NCBI GenBank assembly: GCA_049294015.1
Contig: JBAQCH010000345.1
Location: 4,279-68,278, forward strand
Direction: 5' to 3'
Length of the DNA stretch: 64,000 bases
Source: Anaerolineae bacterium
Lineage (GTDB): Bacteria; Chloroflexota; Anaerolineae; JAAEKA01
Position numbers and translations under genes: made by a program. The notes beneath the pieces were generated by a model. That model worked only from the letters and a program-made list of their open reading frames with translations, was not told the DNA's origin and did no database searches. Shown here in pieces: positions 4,212-47,629 of this stretch (position 1 is the first letter of the stretch; each line of letters begins with the position of its first letter).

Positions 4212-4230
4212 CCCGGAACCCGGTTCCGGG
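4212..4230. repeat. Palindromic REP-like element CCCGGAACC-C-GGTTCCGGG, a member of a GGAACC(N1-3)GGTTCC family that recurs across the window
   Basis: Perfect inverted repeat. Related copies lie at 28501-28540, 31193-31209, 35090-35130, 35833-35846, 41533-41594, 42521-42560, 44713-44727 and 47467-47482. Confidence 0.45.
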
Positions 4231-4279
4231 CCTGCTTCCCCTCTTTCCCAACAAAATCCCAAAAACATGAGCTAGATCA

Positions 4280-4308
4280 TTGGCACCTGCGCCAAAATCG
4301 TGTACAAT
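4280..4308 (+). promoter_or_regulatory. Sigma70-like promoter TTGGCA-17 nt-TACAAT (TG immediately upstream of the -10) for the helicase/defence block
   Basis: -35 TTGGCA at 4280-4285, a 17-nt spacer, and -10 TACAAT at 4303-4308 preceded by TG. It lies ~170 nt upstream of the 4481 start. The RBS is AAGGACCGCTAGATG. Confidence 0.45.
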
Positions 4309-4480
4309 GTCACACGTAGTTCCACCATCGGGTCCGGGAGTTGCGGGCGGGACTTGGTCCCCCCTCTATCCCGCTACAGTCGGGCGTTCATACCGCTTGA
4401 CCCGCTCTTGCACCGACAGAATCTTACGCAAGTCGTGCAAGCCCATCACCGACTTGTGACCAACCACCAAGGACCGCTAG

Positions 4481-7400
4481 ATGGCTCGTCTTGAAGAACT
4501 GACGCGCGGCGCAAGGGTGAAGGGCCTGCTACCCGGCATATCGGTCACCATCGTCGATGTCCAGTGGCACGGCGCATCGGCCGTCGAGTTGACCTTCAAG
4601 GATCTTGATGGAAGGCCGGGCAACCAACTGCTCTTCCGCGATGACGAGGCGCGTCTGGAGATCGCCGCCGAGGGCCAGCCCTGGCGCTTCGACGCTGATG
4701 CCCGCCTGCTGCGTCTCGTCTCAGAAGCGCAGCGCATCCGCCTGGCCTACCTGTTCGACCCTTACCTGGCCGTCCACACCTCGCAGGTTCAGCCGCTCCC
4801 CCACCAGATTACCGCCGTCTACGAGAAGATGCTGCCCCGCCAGCCGCTGCGCTTCCTGTTGGCCGATGACCCCGGCGCGGGCAAGACCATCATGGCGGGG
4901 CTGTACATCAAGGAACTGATCGCGCGCGGCGACCTGGCCCGCTGCCTGATCGTCTGCCCAGGCAGCCTGGTGGAGCAGTGGCAAGAGGAACTGGATCGCC
5001 GCTTTCAACTACCCTTCGACATCCTGACAAACGACCGCTTGGAGGCCGCGCGCAGCGGCAATGCCTTCACCGAGATACCGCTGGTCATCGCCCGGCTGGA
5101 CAAGCTGGCGCGTAACCCGGACTTGGTCGAGAAGGTCACCCAGGTGGACTGGGACCTGATCGTGGTCGACGAGGCGCACAAGATGTCAGCCACCTTCTTC
5201 GGCGGGGAGGTCAAGTACACCAAGCGCTACCGCCTGGGCCAAGCGCTGGCCGAGGCGACGCGCAACTTCCTGCTGATGACCGCCACACCGCACAACGGCA
5301 AGGAGGAGGACTTCCAACTGTTCATGGCGCTGCTGGATGGCGACCGCTTCGAGGGCCGCTTCCGCGATGGCGTGCATACGGTCGACGTCTCTGACATGAT
5401 GCGGCGCATGGTCAAGGAGAAGCTGGTCAAGTTCGACGCCCGGCCGCTGTTCCCGGAGCGTCGGGCCTACACCGTGCCTTACAAGCTCTCCGACCAGGAG
5501 GCCAGGCTTTACCACGAGGTCACCACCTACGTGCGCGAGGAGTTCAACCGGGCTGAGGCCCTGCACAGCAACGGCCGCATGGGCACAGTGGGCTTCGCAT
5601 TGACCGTCCTGCAGCGCCGGCTGGCCTCGTCGCCGGAGGCCATCTACCAGTCGCTCAGGCGCCGGCGCGAGCGCCTGGAGCGCCGCCAGCGCGAGGCTGA
5701 ATTGCTGGCGCGCGGGGCGGGCCTGGCTGCGCCGTCCTTCGCCCAGCCCCTGCCCGGCGACGAGGACGAGGGGCTGGACGACTACCTGGACGAAATCCCG
5801 GCCGAGGAGTTGGAGGCGCTGGAGGAGGAGGTTGTCGACGAAGCGAGCGCAGCCCGCACCGTGGCCGAGCTTCGCCTGGAGATCGATCTGCTCAGGCGTC
5901 TGGAAGGGCTGGCCCAGGCTGTGCGCGCGAGCGGAACCGACCGCAAATGGGAGGAACTGTCGCGCCTGCTGCAAGACCAGGAGGCGATGTTCGATTCTAC
6001 CAGCCATGACGCGGCCAACCCCAGGGGACGGCGGCGCAAGCTGGTGATCTTTACCGAACACCGCGACACGCTCAGCTATCTGTCGGAAGACATCCGCACG
6101 CTGCTGGGTCGGGCCGAGGCCGTGGTGACCATCCACGGCGGCATGTTGCGCGAGGAACGGCGCAAGGCGCAGGAGGCATTCACCCAGGACAAGGATACGG
6201 TGGTGTTGGTGGCGACCGACGCCGCGGGCGAGGGCATCAACCTGCAACGCGCTCACCTGATGATCAACTACGACCTGCCCTGGAACCCCAACCGCCTGGA
6301 GCAGCGCTTTGGCCGCATCCACCGCATCGGCCAGACCGAGGTCTGCCATTTGTGGAACCTGGTGGCCGACGAGACGCGCGAGGGTGACGTCTACCAGACC
6401 TTATTACGCAAGCTGGAGAAGGAGCGCGCCACGCTGGGCGGCGCGGTGTTCGACGTGATCGGCCAGGCCATCGCCGGGGCTGAACTGCGTCGGCTGATGA
6501 TCGAGGCCATCCGCTACGGCGACCGGCCCGAGGTGCGGGCGCGGCTGATGCAGCAGGTGGAGGGCGCGTTGGACCCGCAGCGCCTGACCGATTTGATCGA
6601 GGAACACGCTCTGGCCGCCGACACCATGGACATCAGCCAGGTGCGGGCCATCCGTGAGGACATGGAGCGTTGGGAGGCGCGCCGGCTGCAACCGCACTAC
6701 ATCGCATCCTTCTTCAAGGCCGCCTTCCACCACCTGGGCGGGACCCTGCGCGAGCGTGAGACGGGGCGCTTCGAGATCACCCACGTGCCGGCGCTGATCC
6801 GCCAGCGCGACCGGCTTGTCGGCAGACGCGAGCCGGTGATGCCGCGCTACGAGCGCGCCTGCTTCGACAAGGAACTGATCAACGTGGCAGGCAAGCCCTC
6901 GCCGGCCGCCTTCCTCTGTCCCGGCCACCCGCTGCTGGACGCCGTCATTGACTTGGTTTTGGAGCGCTACCGCGGGCTGATGAAGCAGGGCGCGATCCTG
7001 AAGGACAAGGCCAGCGCCGGCGAGGAGGTGCGGGCGTTGTTCTACCTGGAGCACAGCATCCAGGACGCGCGTGTGGTGGAAGGCGGCCAGCGGCGCACCG
7101 TGTCCAAGCGCCTGCAGTTCGTGGAGATGAACCTGTCCACCGGTGAGTTCCGCGATGCCGGCGCAGCGCCCTATCTGGACTACGAGCCGCTCGCTGCGGA
7201 CGAACAAGCCCTGCTTGCGCCGGTAGTCGAGCCGCTGCTGGCTGACCGGACGATGGAGAGCCAGGCAGTCAGCTACGCCATCAGCGCGGTCGTTCCCCGC
7301 CACCTGCGCGAGGTGCGCAGCATCCGTGAGCCGTTGATCGACAAGACAACCGCAGCGGTCAAGGAACGTCTGACCAAGGAGATCGCCCATTGGGATCACC

Positions 7401-46432: not shown

Positions 46433-46461
46433 ACTATATCATGGCTGAATCTGTCCGTCAA
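46433..46461 (-). promoter_or_regulatory. Leftward sigma70-like promoter TTGACG-17 nt-TATAGT for the cro-like/early operon
   Basis: On the minus strand, TTGACGgacagattcagccatgaTATAGT is followed 7 nt later by the SOS-like box. Confidence 0.45.
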
Positions 46462-46561
46462 TACCCCCTGTCGCGCAACTGAAACATATTGGTCAACCAA
46501 TTTTTCGGCGTAGAACTGAAATAGATTTGAAGACGAGATTCGGGCTGATCGCCTGCGCCTG

Positions 46562-47056
46562 TTGATGAAGGAAAAGCGCCTTTTCACCGCTGGACTGTTG
46601 GCCCTGCTGCGCTGCACGGATGGCAATGAACGCGTTAACCGGCCTACCCTATCCAAGTTGGTCAACGGCAGCTACGGCGCTACGCCCTCGGTTAACGTGG
46701 TGCGCGGCCTGGCGCAGGCCCTGAACGCCACGGCAGACTACCTGCTAGGGCTATCCGACGAGCCACAGCCTGGCGCGATGGCCTTCCTCCGTCGCTATGG
46801 GCTGGCCGACGAGGAACAACTGCTGAGCTTGCTGGCGGAGCGCAACGCGGAGATGGCTAAGATCATGCGCGCCGTCCGTGACATCCCCGATGAGGAACAG
46901 GAAGTGATCTTGCAGCATCTTATGAACGATCTTCTCTTCATTCGGCACATGGCGGCCGAGCGCGCGGCGGCACAAGCCAACAGTGGCGCCAACCGCCGAG
47001 ACCCGCCTGCCAACAGCCCACTATACCTATCTTGGGATACCGACGATGACCACTGA
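46562..47056 (+). CDS. cI-like XRE-family HTH regulator without an S24 peptidase domain
   Basis: LSKLVNGSYGATPSVNVVRGLAQALNATADYLLGLSD is the HTH. No Ser/Lys peptidase region. Confidence 0.55.
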   Translation: MMKEKRLFTAGLLALLRCTDGNERVNRPTLSKLVNGSYGATPSVNVVRGLAQALNATADYLLGLSDEPQPGAMAFLRRYGLADEEQLLSLLAERNAEMAKIMRAVRDIPDEEQEVILQHLMNDLLFIRHMAAERAAAQANSGANRRDPPANSPLYLSWDTDDDH

Positions 47057-47447
47057 AACACCTGATACTCCTGGCAGCCGGCTGCGCAAGGCGCGCGAGC
47101 GCCTGGGATTGCAGCAGATCGAACTGGGCAGGAAGCTGGGCGTGTCCGGCTCCTACATCTCCCGCATCGAACGCGACGTGGTGAAGATCCAGCCTATGGT
47201 GCTGCGCCTGGCCGAGGCGCTGGACGTGAGCGTGGACTACCTGTTGGTCTTACGCGACACACCGCAGCGCGACGCCACAGGGACTGCGCTCTACGAGTCC
47301 ACCCAGGACGAGCTGGTGGCCATACGCCTTCTGCGCATGGTCATCGACGGGCTGCCGCCGGAAGATCGCGTGCGGCTGATCCACTACCTGATCAAGCAGG
47401 CTGGCATCTACAAAGAAACCTTCCAAGCGACGCGCGACAGAGACTGA
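47046..47447 (+). CDS. XRE-family HTH regulator
   Basis: LRKARERLGLQQIELGRKLGVSGSYISRIERDVVKIQPMVLRLAEALDVSVDYLL. Start taken at MTTETP. Confidence 0.55.
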   Translation: MTTETPDTPGSRLRKARERLGLQQIELGRKLGVSGSYISRIERDVVKIQPMVLRLAEALDVSVDYLLVLRDTPQRDATGTALYESTQDELVAIRLLRMVIDGLPPEDRVRLIHYLIKQAGIYKETFQATRDRD

Positions 47448-47629
47448 CGCTTCACTTGGCTGGGCCCAGAACCCGGTTCCGGCCTGCCGCCGGCTGCATC
47501 CAGCCCGCCTGCGCACGCCGTAGAGCCTGTTCCGATGACGATGGGAGGGCGCCCTAGTGACCTTCCACGCTGTCTTTGTTTCACGACGTAACTTGATCGA
47601 TTATCAAAGTAGTTATATAATCCTATCTG

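Follow-up and report, generated by a model that had tools for sequence, protein, structure and literature searches.

Two families of short hairpin-forming repeats in a phage-derived replication module of an Anaerolineae chromosome

The module and its repeats

The stretch of DNA analysed here (the window) is 64,000 nt long, has 65% GC and represents an Anaerolineae chromosome with an integrated phage-derived replication module. The operon of this module (26329..46381, minus strand) encodes DnaB, a C5 methyltransferase, DUF8224, an N6/N4 methyltransferase, RecD2, a LexA-DBD protein and a 317-aa protein (whose homologue in the related locus L243 has a Gad2 Pfam match), and neither structural genes nor any integrase, transposase or RAYT turned up in it. 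The operon has a single good promoter candidate, a sigma-70-like sequence with an extended -10 (TTGACG-17-TATAGT, 46433..46461, minus strand). Two families of repeats are found here, at boundaries between the genes of the module, both supported as real hairpin-forming repeats, and a count against expectation in the window (the sequence-only reading called for a genome-wide one) puts both far above chance (3 matches to family 1 with an N1-3 spacer against 0.00 expected from 100 shuffles, and 5 matches to family 2 against 0.34 expected).

Family 1 had been described as GGAACC/GGTTCC palindromes with an N1-3 spacer. The motif is real at the sites listed, but its spacer is 0-1 nt (GGAACC-N0/1-GGTTCC is exact at 4215, 28505, 31195, 35834, 41534 and 44714) and the copy at 47469 is imperfect (AGAACCCGGTTCC). 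A composite, claimed to occur four times, one of them inverted, does so in a 36-nt form (28505+, 35093+, 42523+ and 41557-). Simple palindromes and composite, previously taken as separate things, are states of one element, in which an outer palindrome (CGGAACC/GGTTCCG) holds 0, 1 or 2 units of 23 nt between its arms, in either orientation (F or R). Each unit reads CTTG-GGTT-GAGCCTGTCGA-AACC, its core being a small hairpin (GGTT-GAGCCTGTCGA-AACC), and the full form, with one unit per orientation, is a 60-nt perfect palindrome. Within the element short repeats, both direct and inverted, are nested (GGAACC, GAAACC, GGTT/AACC), which suggests that it probably expands, contracts and flips; the simple palindromes would be its empty state.

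Among the simple palindromes, an intergenic one (CCCGGAACCCGGTTCCGGG, 9+9, 4212..4230) lies ~265 nt upstream of hmaA and, as had been noted, outside the phage-derived module. On the minus strand, CCGGAACCGGGTTCCGG (31193..31209) falls within the last codons of a 107-aa gene, with the C5-methyltransferase gene starting 18 nt further on; CGGAACCGGTTCCG (35833..35846) falls in the last RecD2 codons and 16 nt before an N6 methyltransferase start, and RecD2 does end on the palindrome (...LRNRFRGN*), as the sequence-only reading had it; CCGGAACCGGTTCCCA occupies 41532..41547; and CGGAACCGGGTTCCG (44712..44728) is intergenic, ~5 nt past the stop of a 419-aa gene. A degenerate palindrome (CCAGAACCCGGTTCCGG, 47466..47482, plus strand) is located 20 nt past the stop of a divergent cI-like HTH_3 gene, and a hairpin (GCACCGGGTTCCGGTGC, 26302..26318, minus strand) stands at the module end, 11 nt past the dnaB stop. 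The composites, also on the minus strand, carry one F unit at 28501..28541 (upstream of dnaB; CGAAACC-CTTGGGTTGAGCCTGTCGGAACC-GGTTCCCGG on the transcribed strand), at 35091..35130 (including the stop codon of the N6/N4 methyltransferase gene) and at 42521..42560 (where the C-terminus of the upstream gene is rewritten by it), and one R unit relative to transcription at 41555..41594, directly 3' of the stop of a 63-aa gene.

Family 2, GTAGCGCC-N3-GGCGCA, has the shape of a GTAG-tagged REP. It occurs as GCGCC-N3-GGCGCTAC at 28548, 34645, 35068 and 46027, with TGC in place of TAC at 35136, and as a longer variant (GCGCCCGCCAGGGCGCTAC) at 41511. The stem is identical in the five canonical copies and one base pair longer at 41511, the loop is variable (UGC, UAC, GAA, UGGC), and all six copies have the same, sense orientation. 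At four sites in the window the start codon lies 32-35 nt past the hairpin end, which places family 2 a short way 5' of the ribosome-binding site; by our own estimate, 32-35 nt before the start is approximately the upstream edge of the ribosome-binding region. The earlier placement was ~25-35 nt upstream of the ribosome-binding site. At the remaining two sites a composite intervenes between hairpin and gene.

The four, all on the minus strand, are GTAGCGCC-TAC-GGCGC (34645..34660, ending 32 nt before the start of a 125-aa gene; in L252 its loop is TGC and in L244 the hairpin is broken), GTAGCGCC-TGC-GGCGC (35068..35083, 32 nt before a 111-aa gene), the variant GTAGCGCCC-TGGC-GGGCGC (41511..41529, 34 nt before the 317-aa gene and conserved in L243) and GTAGCGCC-GAA-GGCGC (46027..46042, 35 nt before the start of the 419-aa gene at 45991, within the 159-nt gap 3' of the operon's first gene, which encodes a small HTH protein). 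The other two, on the same strand, are GTAGCGCC-TGC-GGCGC at 28548..28563, where the TAG of the GTAG tag is the stop of gene 28560-28982, and GCAGCGCC-TGC-GGCGC at 35136..35151. The latter is the distal copy of a pair: two family-2 copies had been seen to flank a family-1 element at 35068-35149, and a 14-nt direct repeat (GCGCCGCAGGCGCT) indeed flanks the composite there; three relatives have the duplication as well. The gene-proximal copy (35068..35083) is kept in relatives, and the distal one is degenerate in L247 (GGTGC) and L243 (GCATC). A family-2-like GCGCC-AAATC-GGCGC without the GTAG tag (42243..42257, minus strand) lies ~20 nt from the 3' edge of a 329-nt cassette.

States and cassette edges among relatives

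Wherever a family-1 site can be compared, relatives with 83-93% nucleotide identity differ in its state. Where the window has the hairpin GCACCGGGTTCCGGTGC, 3' of dnaB, L243 and L244 have a family-1 palindrome (GGAACCAGGTTCC / GAACCGGGTTC) and L247 has none. Upstream of dnaB there are 0 units in L244, one F in the window, two F in L243 and L247, and F + R in L249 and L251. Site 31195 has 0 units in the window, L243 and L247 and one R (a composite) in L251; the RecD-end site has 0 units in the window and two F units in L247; and the 35.1 kb site has F in the window and L251 and R (inverted) in L247 and L243. The 41.5 kb elements (41532..41547 and 41555..41594) and the 42.5 kb element, all present in the window, are absent from L243. 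Metagenome assemblies break at these repeats.

The motifs are also associated with breakpoints of homology. Specifically, 8 of 29 unique homology breakpoints against relatives lie within 15 nt of a motif, where 3.2% are expected (p = 2.5e-6), an enrichment that is due in part to the motifs' own length variation and not to cassette exchange. The motif-associated breakpoints include two methyltransferase cassettes. The 1.75-kb C5-methyltransferase cassette, missing from L243 and L247, has palindrome 31195 as its left edge; the RecD-end palindrome (35833..35846) bounds a variable cassette region on the left, gene content between it and the 35.1-kb composite differing between the window, L243 and L247; and the 329-nt cassette (42225-42553), missing from L243, has the 42521..42560 composite as its 5' edge. 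Identical sequences at many junctions of one operon suggest that the motifs may be recombination junctions for cassettes. The repeats in question measure 7-17 nt, which is a limit on the junction model, and recombination at them is what we infer.

The 23-nt unit in other phyla

The family-1 unit belongs to a hairpin family that is present in at least six bacterial phyla and has an 11-nt loop and a covarying stem. In 99 independent copies from other phyla, 9 loop positions are fixed and 2 are Y, and pairing at the inner 4 stem positions is 83-89% and draws on GC, CG, AU and UA; the stem scores 0.50 for covariation, whereas shuffles score 0.25, none of 500 reaching 0.50, and slid controls 0.13-0.18. 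A covariance model (R1), built solely from copies in other phyla, recovers all four window copies with E = 2e-6 to 4e-3 (2.3e-6 at 42521..42560, 6.5e-6 at 41555..41594, 3e-5 at 35091..35130 and 0.0037 at 28501..28541). Stem mismatches of the G-T/T-G (19) and A-C/C-A (15) types are about equally frequent, so that the hairpin family has no strand asymmetry. No match to the unit hairpin was found among Rfam 15 families or in the literature. The family is mainly cellular (>120 genome loci among the matches listed against 11 matches in the viral collection), and a T-run follows 19 of 55 widespread hairpins, in low-GC genomes.

What the repeats may be

REPs normally lie near the 3' end of the upstream gene, and their listed traits include GTAG tags, stems as short as 5 bp, short loops and the donation of TAG stops (PMC3733652). 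Family 2 shares with GTAG REPs the 5' GTAG, the GC-rich stem and the short variable loop (Di Nocera 2013, PMC3733652) and, as judged from its sequence, is best explained as a putative miniature GTAG-tagged REP-like hairpin; because the GTAG tag defines REPs, it is the more REP-like of the two families, which reverses the earlier ranking. More generally, the window repeats have in common with REPs and BIMEs the donation of a TAG stop, the overlap with helicase and repair gene ends, a tandem copy number that varies among relatives and an occurrence in Chloroflexi, and with BIMEs and REPINs the inverted dimers that yield one long hairpin (Bertels and Rainey 2011, PMC3116915). With 17 nt and a 5-bp stem, however, family 2 falls at the bottom of the REP size range, has one orientation only and lies close to the next start codon and not to the preceding stop, the conserved part of the family-1 unit is its loop and carries no GTAG, and the window repeats are low in copy number, module-enriched and without a RAYT that could be found.

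We put at about even (a probability near 0.5) the reading in which both families are REP/BIME-like palindromic DNA-level repeats carried by the module, which would act as cassette-shuffling junctions, the role that PeSL cassettes have in T4-type phages, and secondarily as hairpins that punctuate transcripts. Against it stand the near confinement of both families to the module, whereas classical REPs are high-copy and genome-wide; the finding of no RAYT, transposase or other dedicated enzyme in the window, nor recurrently beside the widespread hairpins; and the single orientation and constant start-codon distance of family 2, which better fit an RNA-level signal than a selfish DNA repeat. Similar in another way are the PeSLs of T4-type phages, short conserved intergenic stem-loop motifs that recur through genome regions rich in non-essential genes (Arbiol 2010, PMC2839356; Comeau 2014, PMC4122927) and, like the window repeats, lie at insertion, deletion and replacement boundaries between close relatives. 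PeSLs, however, are a strong sigma-70 early promoter plus a working terminator, whereas the window motifs have neither promoter nor U-tract terminator, and the PeSL host and phage type are unrelated to the Anaerolineae module.

Possible but doubtful is the view that the repeats are dedicated RNA-level operon signals and the DNA polymorphism a side effect, with family 2 as a 5' cistron boundary (a processing site, a 5' stabiliser or the target of an antitermination or translation factor) and family-1 hairpins attenuating or terminating transcription between cassettes. Family 2 is sense in 6/6 copies and absent outside the module; five genes unrelated to one another, in the window and relatives, start 32-35 nt past it, and orthologous sites keep it, whereas the gene-distal duplicate has decayed. 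Because of the constant spacing, RNase processing or an mRNA boundary stays a candidate role. In an unrelated viral contig (IMGVR_UViG_3300031867_000336), the CCGGAACC-N-GGTTCCGG core with A and T runs on its flanks makes 15 or more canonical terminator-like hairpins, and the T-runs of the widespread hairpins point the same way, but U-tracts and terminator-scan matches are missing from every motif site in the window. As canonical terminators or sigma-70-type promoters the motif sites were rejected, since none in the window qualifies. GC-rich hairpins right after stop codons are shared with intrinsic terminators and REP-type mRNA stabilisers, yet several window motifs overlap the final codons of a gene or immediately precede a ribosome-binding site. 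One and the same family-1 site can carry units in either orientation, stem mismatches have no G-U bias, and in L244 one orthologous family-2 copy is broken and the downstream gene intact. Folding, another proposed check, sets only 41473-41610 (z = -4.8) and 42500-42580 (z = -2.3) apart; at most sites the energies of the short hairpins are unexceptional against shuffles in 65% GC DNA.

Lambda nut (boxA + boxB, in two copies) and HK022 put are antitermination sites, and lambda nutR/tR1 lies after the first small HTH gene. One family-2 copy is a small leader hairpin in the same position, after the first small HTH gene of the early operon. The nut-like role once proposed is nevertheless disfavoured because no boxA-like sequence lies near any motif site and variable loops sit on fixed stems (the reverse of boxB, and ill-suited to a loop-reading protein); the copies also number six rather than two.

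We regard it as unlikely that the repeats are ordinary REPs of the Anaerolineae host, passive colonists of a long-resident prophage remnant with no special relation to the module. The host Hma defence island does contain one family-1 copy (4212-4230), Chloroflexi are known to have GTAG REPs and the unit family is mainly cellular, but the module (~21 kb) holds ~9 family-1 and 6 family-2 sites against 1 and 0 in the ~61 kb of DNA that flanks it in the window, L243, L244 and L247, the motifs move with the module into differing chromosomal contexts, and they are missing from a relative of 77% identity (L245). Neither family was found in 0.89 Mb of other bacterial DNA. These counts do not support the suggestion that family 1 may be a genome-wide REP-like element, and they agree with the description of family 2 as operon-specific, since it is found in the module only in all DNA surveyed; in behaviour family 1 is REP/BIME-like, as supposed: its tandem copy number varies, it forms inverted pairs and it runs into the last codons of genes.

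The phiC31 inverted-repeat operators and Cluster A mycobacteriophage stoperators are many fixed-length double-stranded DNA sites, and the Gram-positive-type LexA box has N4 spacing. Double-stranded operators of such a kind for a module-encoded HTH protein (the LexA-DBD-only protein, the small Crp-like HTH protein of the operon's first gene or the cI-like repressor) are very improbable here: the operon does encode a LexA_DNA_bind protein, many copies of one short motif fill intergenic gaps as in those phages, and perfect 14-19-bp palindromes with GAAC/GTTC half-sites stand at many early-operon junctions, but the LexA-like role proposed before is disfavoured because the spacing is variable and non-LexA (a centre of 0 or 1 nt that differs between copies, and GAAC-N2/3-GTTC) and 23-46 nt insertions at the dyad centre are tolerated, while the family-2 loop goes from 3 to 4 nt (as a dyad, GCGCC/GGCGC half-sites 3 or 6 nt apart) and the same palindrome core occurs in the viral contig without homologous proteins.

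The copy changes and flips of family 1 would probably arise by slipped-strand or hairpin-mediated recombination. Once transcribed, the elements would form stable hairpins without U-tracts between cistrons, most likely 3'-exonuclease barriers, pause sites or cistron boundaries, a putative role at the RNA level. At the level of DNA, the motifs would serve as recombination junctions, with causation running in the direction that we infer, at which the gene cassettes of the module may be gained, lost and reordered.

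The module and its two motif families

The DNA of the window (~65% GC) is chromosomal. The phage-derived replication operon, here the module, occupies 26.3-46.4 kb on the minus strand and encodes DnaB, a C5 methyltransferase, DUF8224, an N6/N4 methyltransferase and RecD2, together with a protein consisting of a LexA DNA-binding domain only and a 317-aa protein whose homologue in the related locus L243 matches Gad2. The sole good promoter-like site is sigma-70-like (46461-46433, minus) and drives a 76-aa HTH gene, from which a 154-aa cI-like HTH_3 gene (46983-47447, plus) diverges; the layout of 46433-47447 resembles a lambdoid switch. 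Toxin-antitoxin genes follow beside the module, where 47630-48582 holds a Gp49 (HigB-like)/HTH_37 (HigA-like) pair and a DUF433 gene. The operon has one canonical terminator-like hairpin with a T-run (33939-33963, minus), in a 129-nt gap free of either motif family, and its 398-aa gene, the L243 homologue of which matches HTH_36, contains a 42-nt (14-aa) repeat five times in tandem (38596-38860).

Elsewhere in the window, the Hma defence system covers 4.5-22.8 kb and sugar-utilisation genes 52-64 kb. The anti-phage Hma genes at 4481-22812 (HmaA 4481-8113, HmaB 8909-11695 and HmaC 19504-22812, the last with an additional N-terminal HEPN_Swt1 domain) are split by ~7.7 kb of lower-GC DNA (11738-19443) encoding a TPR/HEAT/SH3 protein and two ABC permeases. 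Among small plus-strand genes, a stretch of 142 nt is directly repeated (50634-50775 and 51505-51646; 94% identity, 871 nt apart), perhaps reflecting gene duplication or serving as a boundary repeat. The window yielded no structural genes, integrase, transposase, tRNA or tmRNA; specifically, none of about 50 ORFs in it matched Y1_Tnp or another transposase (the cognate RAYT of REP elements is a Y1 HUH transposase), and the module's unknown proteins gave no nuclease, recombinase or RAYT in PHROGs and Pfam. Megablast of 26-48 kb against phage records returned no match, and the RecD2 protein found no relatives in viral contigs.

The sequence-only reading had described two families of recurring hairpin motifs in this DNA, and both are real, with counts above shuffle expectation. 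Family 1 is a CGGAACC/GGTTCCG palindrome that either stands alone (simple) or encloses a 23-nt unit (composite). Its core, GGAACC-N0/1-GGTTCC, occurs at 4215, 28505, 31195, 35834, 41534 and 44714, with a degenerate copy at 47469, where shuffles predict none; the spacer is thus 0-1 nt rather than the 1-3 nt first described. A 36-nt composite is present four times (28505, 35093 and 42523 in + orientation, 41557 in - orientation). The RecD helicase does end on the palindrome, as had been claimed, with the RecD2 C-terminus reading ...LRNRFRGN-stop. Folding, which had been proposed as a check, gave energies mostly unremarkable against shuffles in GC-rich DNA, and therefore thermodynamics alone proves little.

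Family 2 reads GTAGCGCC-loop-GGCGCA on the transcribed strand. The pattern GCGCC-N3-GGCGCTAC was found five times against 0.34 expected, and a longer variant lies at 41511; the stem is identical at the five canonical copies and one base pair longer in the variant, the loops differ (TGC, TAC, GAA, TGGC), and all six copies are oriented alike. Five unrelated genes, counted over the window and its relatives, have their start codons 32-35 nt past the end of the hairpin; the previous estimate had been ~25-35 nt upstream of the ribosome-binding site.

Family-1 states and cassette edges in relatives

Six relatives of the module (L243, L244, L247, L249, L251 and L252) share 83-93% nucleotide identity with it, and the state of family 1 varies between the window and these relatives at every comparable site. 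The clearest case lies upstream of dnaB, where L244 has only CGGAACC-C-GGTTCCG (transcribed strand), the window has the same arms enclosing one 23-nt unit, CTTGGGTTGAGCCTGTCGGAACC, L243 and L247 have two tandem units, and L249 and L251 have the unit followed by its own reverse complement, a perfect palindrome of ~60 nt. A single orthologous site thus shows no unit, one forward, two forward, or one forward plus one reverse (orientation relative to transcription). Similarly, the site at 31195 is simple in the window, L243 and L247 but composite in L251; the RecD end (35834) is simple in the window, has two units in L247 and a different hairpin in L243; the unit at 35.1 kb is forward in the window and inverted in L247 and L243; and the family-1 sites at 41.5 and 42.5 kb are missing from L243. 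One further locus, L248, is identical in sequence to L247 (contig Ga0209573_1000067, different stated coordinates), either a true duplication or a database artefact.

Inverted pairs forming a long hairpin, and tandem arrays with copy numbers that differ among strains, are the hallmarks of BIME/REPIN-like composites, and family 1 shows both. Because short repeats (GGAACC, GAAACC, GGTT/AACC) are nested in the element, slippage and hairpin-mediated inversion are candidate mechanisms that would suffice for its expansion, contraction and flipping. MITEs have terminal inverted repeats together with a target-site duplication; in family 1 the 7-nt arms serve as such inverted repeats, and a 14-nt direct repeat flanks a single copy only (35068/35136), the other insertions showing only CGGAA-type microhomology. 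The 25-nt composite pattern has no match in viral contigs.

Breakpoints of homology also fall at the motifs. Between the window and five relatives, 8 of 29 unique breakpoints are no more than 15 nt from a motif (3.2% expected, p = 2.5e-6), part of this enrichment being the motifs' own length variation. More specifically, the 1.75-kb C5-methyltransferase gene is an insertion that starts directly after the palindrome at 31195, the 42.5-kb composite opens a 329-nt cassette, and the stretch bounded by the RecD-end palindrome and the 35.1-kb composite differs in gene content among the window, L243 and L247. Motifs at the edges of indels and replacements between close relatives mirror the PeSL cassettes of T4-type phages (PMC2839356), although PeSL joins a strong sigma-70-like early promoter to its stem-loop and carries a terminator, and the window motifs have neither. 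We put at about one half the probability that the motifs are REP/BIME-like palindromic repeats carried by the module, which provide the junctions where cassettes are shuffled and, in a secondary role, form hairpins punctuating transcripts.

Family 2 resembles GTAG-type REPs, palindromes whose 5' GTAG tag stays unpaired, whose GC-rich stem measures 5-13 bp and whose loop is short; such REPs are known in Chloroflexi, and may donate a TAG or insert in helicase and repair genes (PMC3733652). Five of the six copies read GTAGCGCC-N3/4-GGCGC(A), and one has GCAG; the GTAG tag and short loop are present, the stem is at the 5-bp minimum of the range, and at 28563 the TAG of the tag doubles as the upstream gene's stop codon. 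GTAG-type REPs often form inverted dimers in either orientation, whereas the lone family-2 pair, around the 35.1-kb composite, is head-to-tail, 68 nt apart; its gene-proximal copy is kept in relatives and the distal one decays. GTAG-type REPs are also expected at high copy number, scattered over the host genome. Outside the module, family 2 is absent from the ~61 kb surveyed in the window and in flanks of L243, L244 and L247, and from 0.89 Mb of other genomes, and its pattern GTAGCGCCNNNGGCGCA gave only single chance-like matches in viral contigs. What speaks against counting family 2 among the REPs is the lack of inverted dimers, of a RAYT among the window ORFs searched, and of copies in the surveyed flanks and other genomes.

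Unit insertions in last codons rewrite C-termini to peptides such as ...RNLQVEPVETLGLSLSKPVPG... (L247 2629-2760; window 42500-42560), and feed spurious or variable protein tails into databases (...VEPVET..., ...LSLSKP...). Short-read metagenome contigs of relatives (L251 at both ends, L250, and L252 at its start) terminate exactly inside composite or family-2 elements, and the repeats therefore break metagenome assemblies.

The 23-nt unit in other phyla

A genome scan for GGTTYCGRCAGGCTCAACC returned at least 120 loci, cultured isolates included, with carriers among the matches listed in Actinomycetota, Bacteroidota, Spirochaetota (Treponema), Chloroflexota, Latescibacterota and Pseudomonadota. 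These loci hold 99 more distinct copies outside the scan pattern, in which the loop GAGCYTGYCGA (9 of 11 positions fixed, the other two Y) is kept and the flanks differ but are self-complementary (for instance CCCCCT...AGGGGG, GGTC...GACC and TCATT...AATGA). Across these independent copies, pairing at the four innermost stem positions is 83-89% and draws on GC, CG, AU and UA. The covariation score of 0.50 compares with 0.25 for shuffles (none of 500 attains 0.50) and 0.13-0.18 for slid controls. A covariance model made solely from these copies, with no window sequence, finds all four window copies (E = 2e-6 to 4e-3), and the 23-nt unit has both the 11-nt conserved loop and the covarying stem of at least 4 bp. 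Tandem sheared G-A pairs may close the loop.

The widespread hairpins are typically found either paired, forward with reverse and with unlike stems, or in tandem arrays with a period of 23-51 nt; in low-GC genomes about one third are followed 3' by a T-run. The exact 19-mer is rare in viral contigs (11 matches). All-against-all clustering of 2,732 ORFs from 120 listed hairpin loci revealed no recurrent neighbour gene family, only common ones such as ABC ATPases and response regulators, and a test of intergenic depletion by long ORFs was weak (73% versus 92%) and is unreliable in GC-rich DNA. Against Rfam 15, the window had no match passing the gathering threshold, 41400-42700 had none of relevance even up to E = 10, and the hairpin sites of 18 carrier loci from other phyla had none, one tRNA and one Flavo-1 being the only matches in those loci; nor did the searchable literature, queried by DNA words and repeat-encoded peptides (e.g. 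FDKLRANG, VEPVET, LSLSKG), yield anything relevant. In three Flavobacteriia loci (L023, L028, L046) a forward-reverse pair sits within a longer conserved palindromic element of ~130 nt (TGTCA...TGACA, flanks GGCTGTCTAAAAAG...CTTTTTAGA-AGCC), and at another locus, L017, a Flavo-1 RNA lies ~125 nt downstream. The R-orientation core (GGTTTCGACAGG) may resemble 9-12 nt of the conserved 5' region of tmRNA, probably by coincidence.

A tentative reading, to which we give a minor share of belief, is that the 23-nt unit is an undescribed cross-phyla hairpin read as single-stranded DNA or RNA by a conserved factor. It would invade pre-existing palindromes at gene boundaries and would be the active agent of cassette exchange in the module, not a passive product of palindrome instability.

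Regulatory readings and significance

The main rival holds that the motifs, family 2 especially, are primarily RNA-regulatory. The constant distance of family 2 from start codons and its uniform orientation favour this reading, which we nevertheless consider rather unlikely. In the stems of the widespread hairpins G-T and A-C mismatches are about equally common, evidence against a role confined to a single RNA strand. The motif sites themselves are not canonical intrinsic terminators, since the GC-rich hairpins lack a U-tract: the terminator scan picked up none of them and no T-run lies 3' of any motif. An unrelated viral contig of 32 kb and 57% GC (IMGVR_UViG_3300031867_000336; loci L281, L296, L322) does carry AAAACCGGAACC-S-GGTTCCGGTTTT in 15 or more intergenic copies; these resemble canonical bidirectional intrinsic terminators and have the same palindrome core as family 1. 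Neither blastn nor tblastx relates this contig to the window. The core is thus a hairpin found repeatedly at the gene boundaries of more than one phage.

Several more specific roles are disfavoured. As nut-like antitermination sites of the lambda type, which set boxA beside a boxB hairpin of constant loop, the motifs are contradicted by the lack of any boxA-like sequence in the module and by family-2 loops that differ between copies. The LexA operator of Gram-positive and Chloroflexi type is a GAAC-N4-GTTC dyad of fixed spacing; here the spacing is N2 or N3 and insertions of 23-46 nt are tolerated at the dyad centre, and an operator role is therefore not plausible. No promoter-like site coincides with any motif, and family 2 has no consistent -10 or -35 element. 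An N4-type hairpin promoter (5-bp stem, 3-nt loop) was rejected, there being no virion RNA polymerase or N4-like genes, as was an integron attC site (GTTGAGC fits GTTRRRY), the element being far too short and without cassette-array context.

A hairpin with so constant a loop across at least six phyla is absent from Rfam 15 and the searchable literature. Conservation this wide calls for an explanation, whether a protein that recognises the motif, exceptional stability of its fold, or spread by horizontal transfer. For the module, REP/BIME-like palindromes are concentrated in phage-derived DNA exactly where cassettes, two DNA methyltransferases included, differ between close relatives. If they are indeed shuffling junctions, the PeSL idea of repeat-mediated modular shuffling would extend to a very different phage and host, in Chloroflexota, and would offer a concrete, testable route for accessory-gene mosaicism in phage replication modules.
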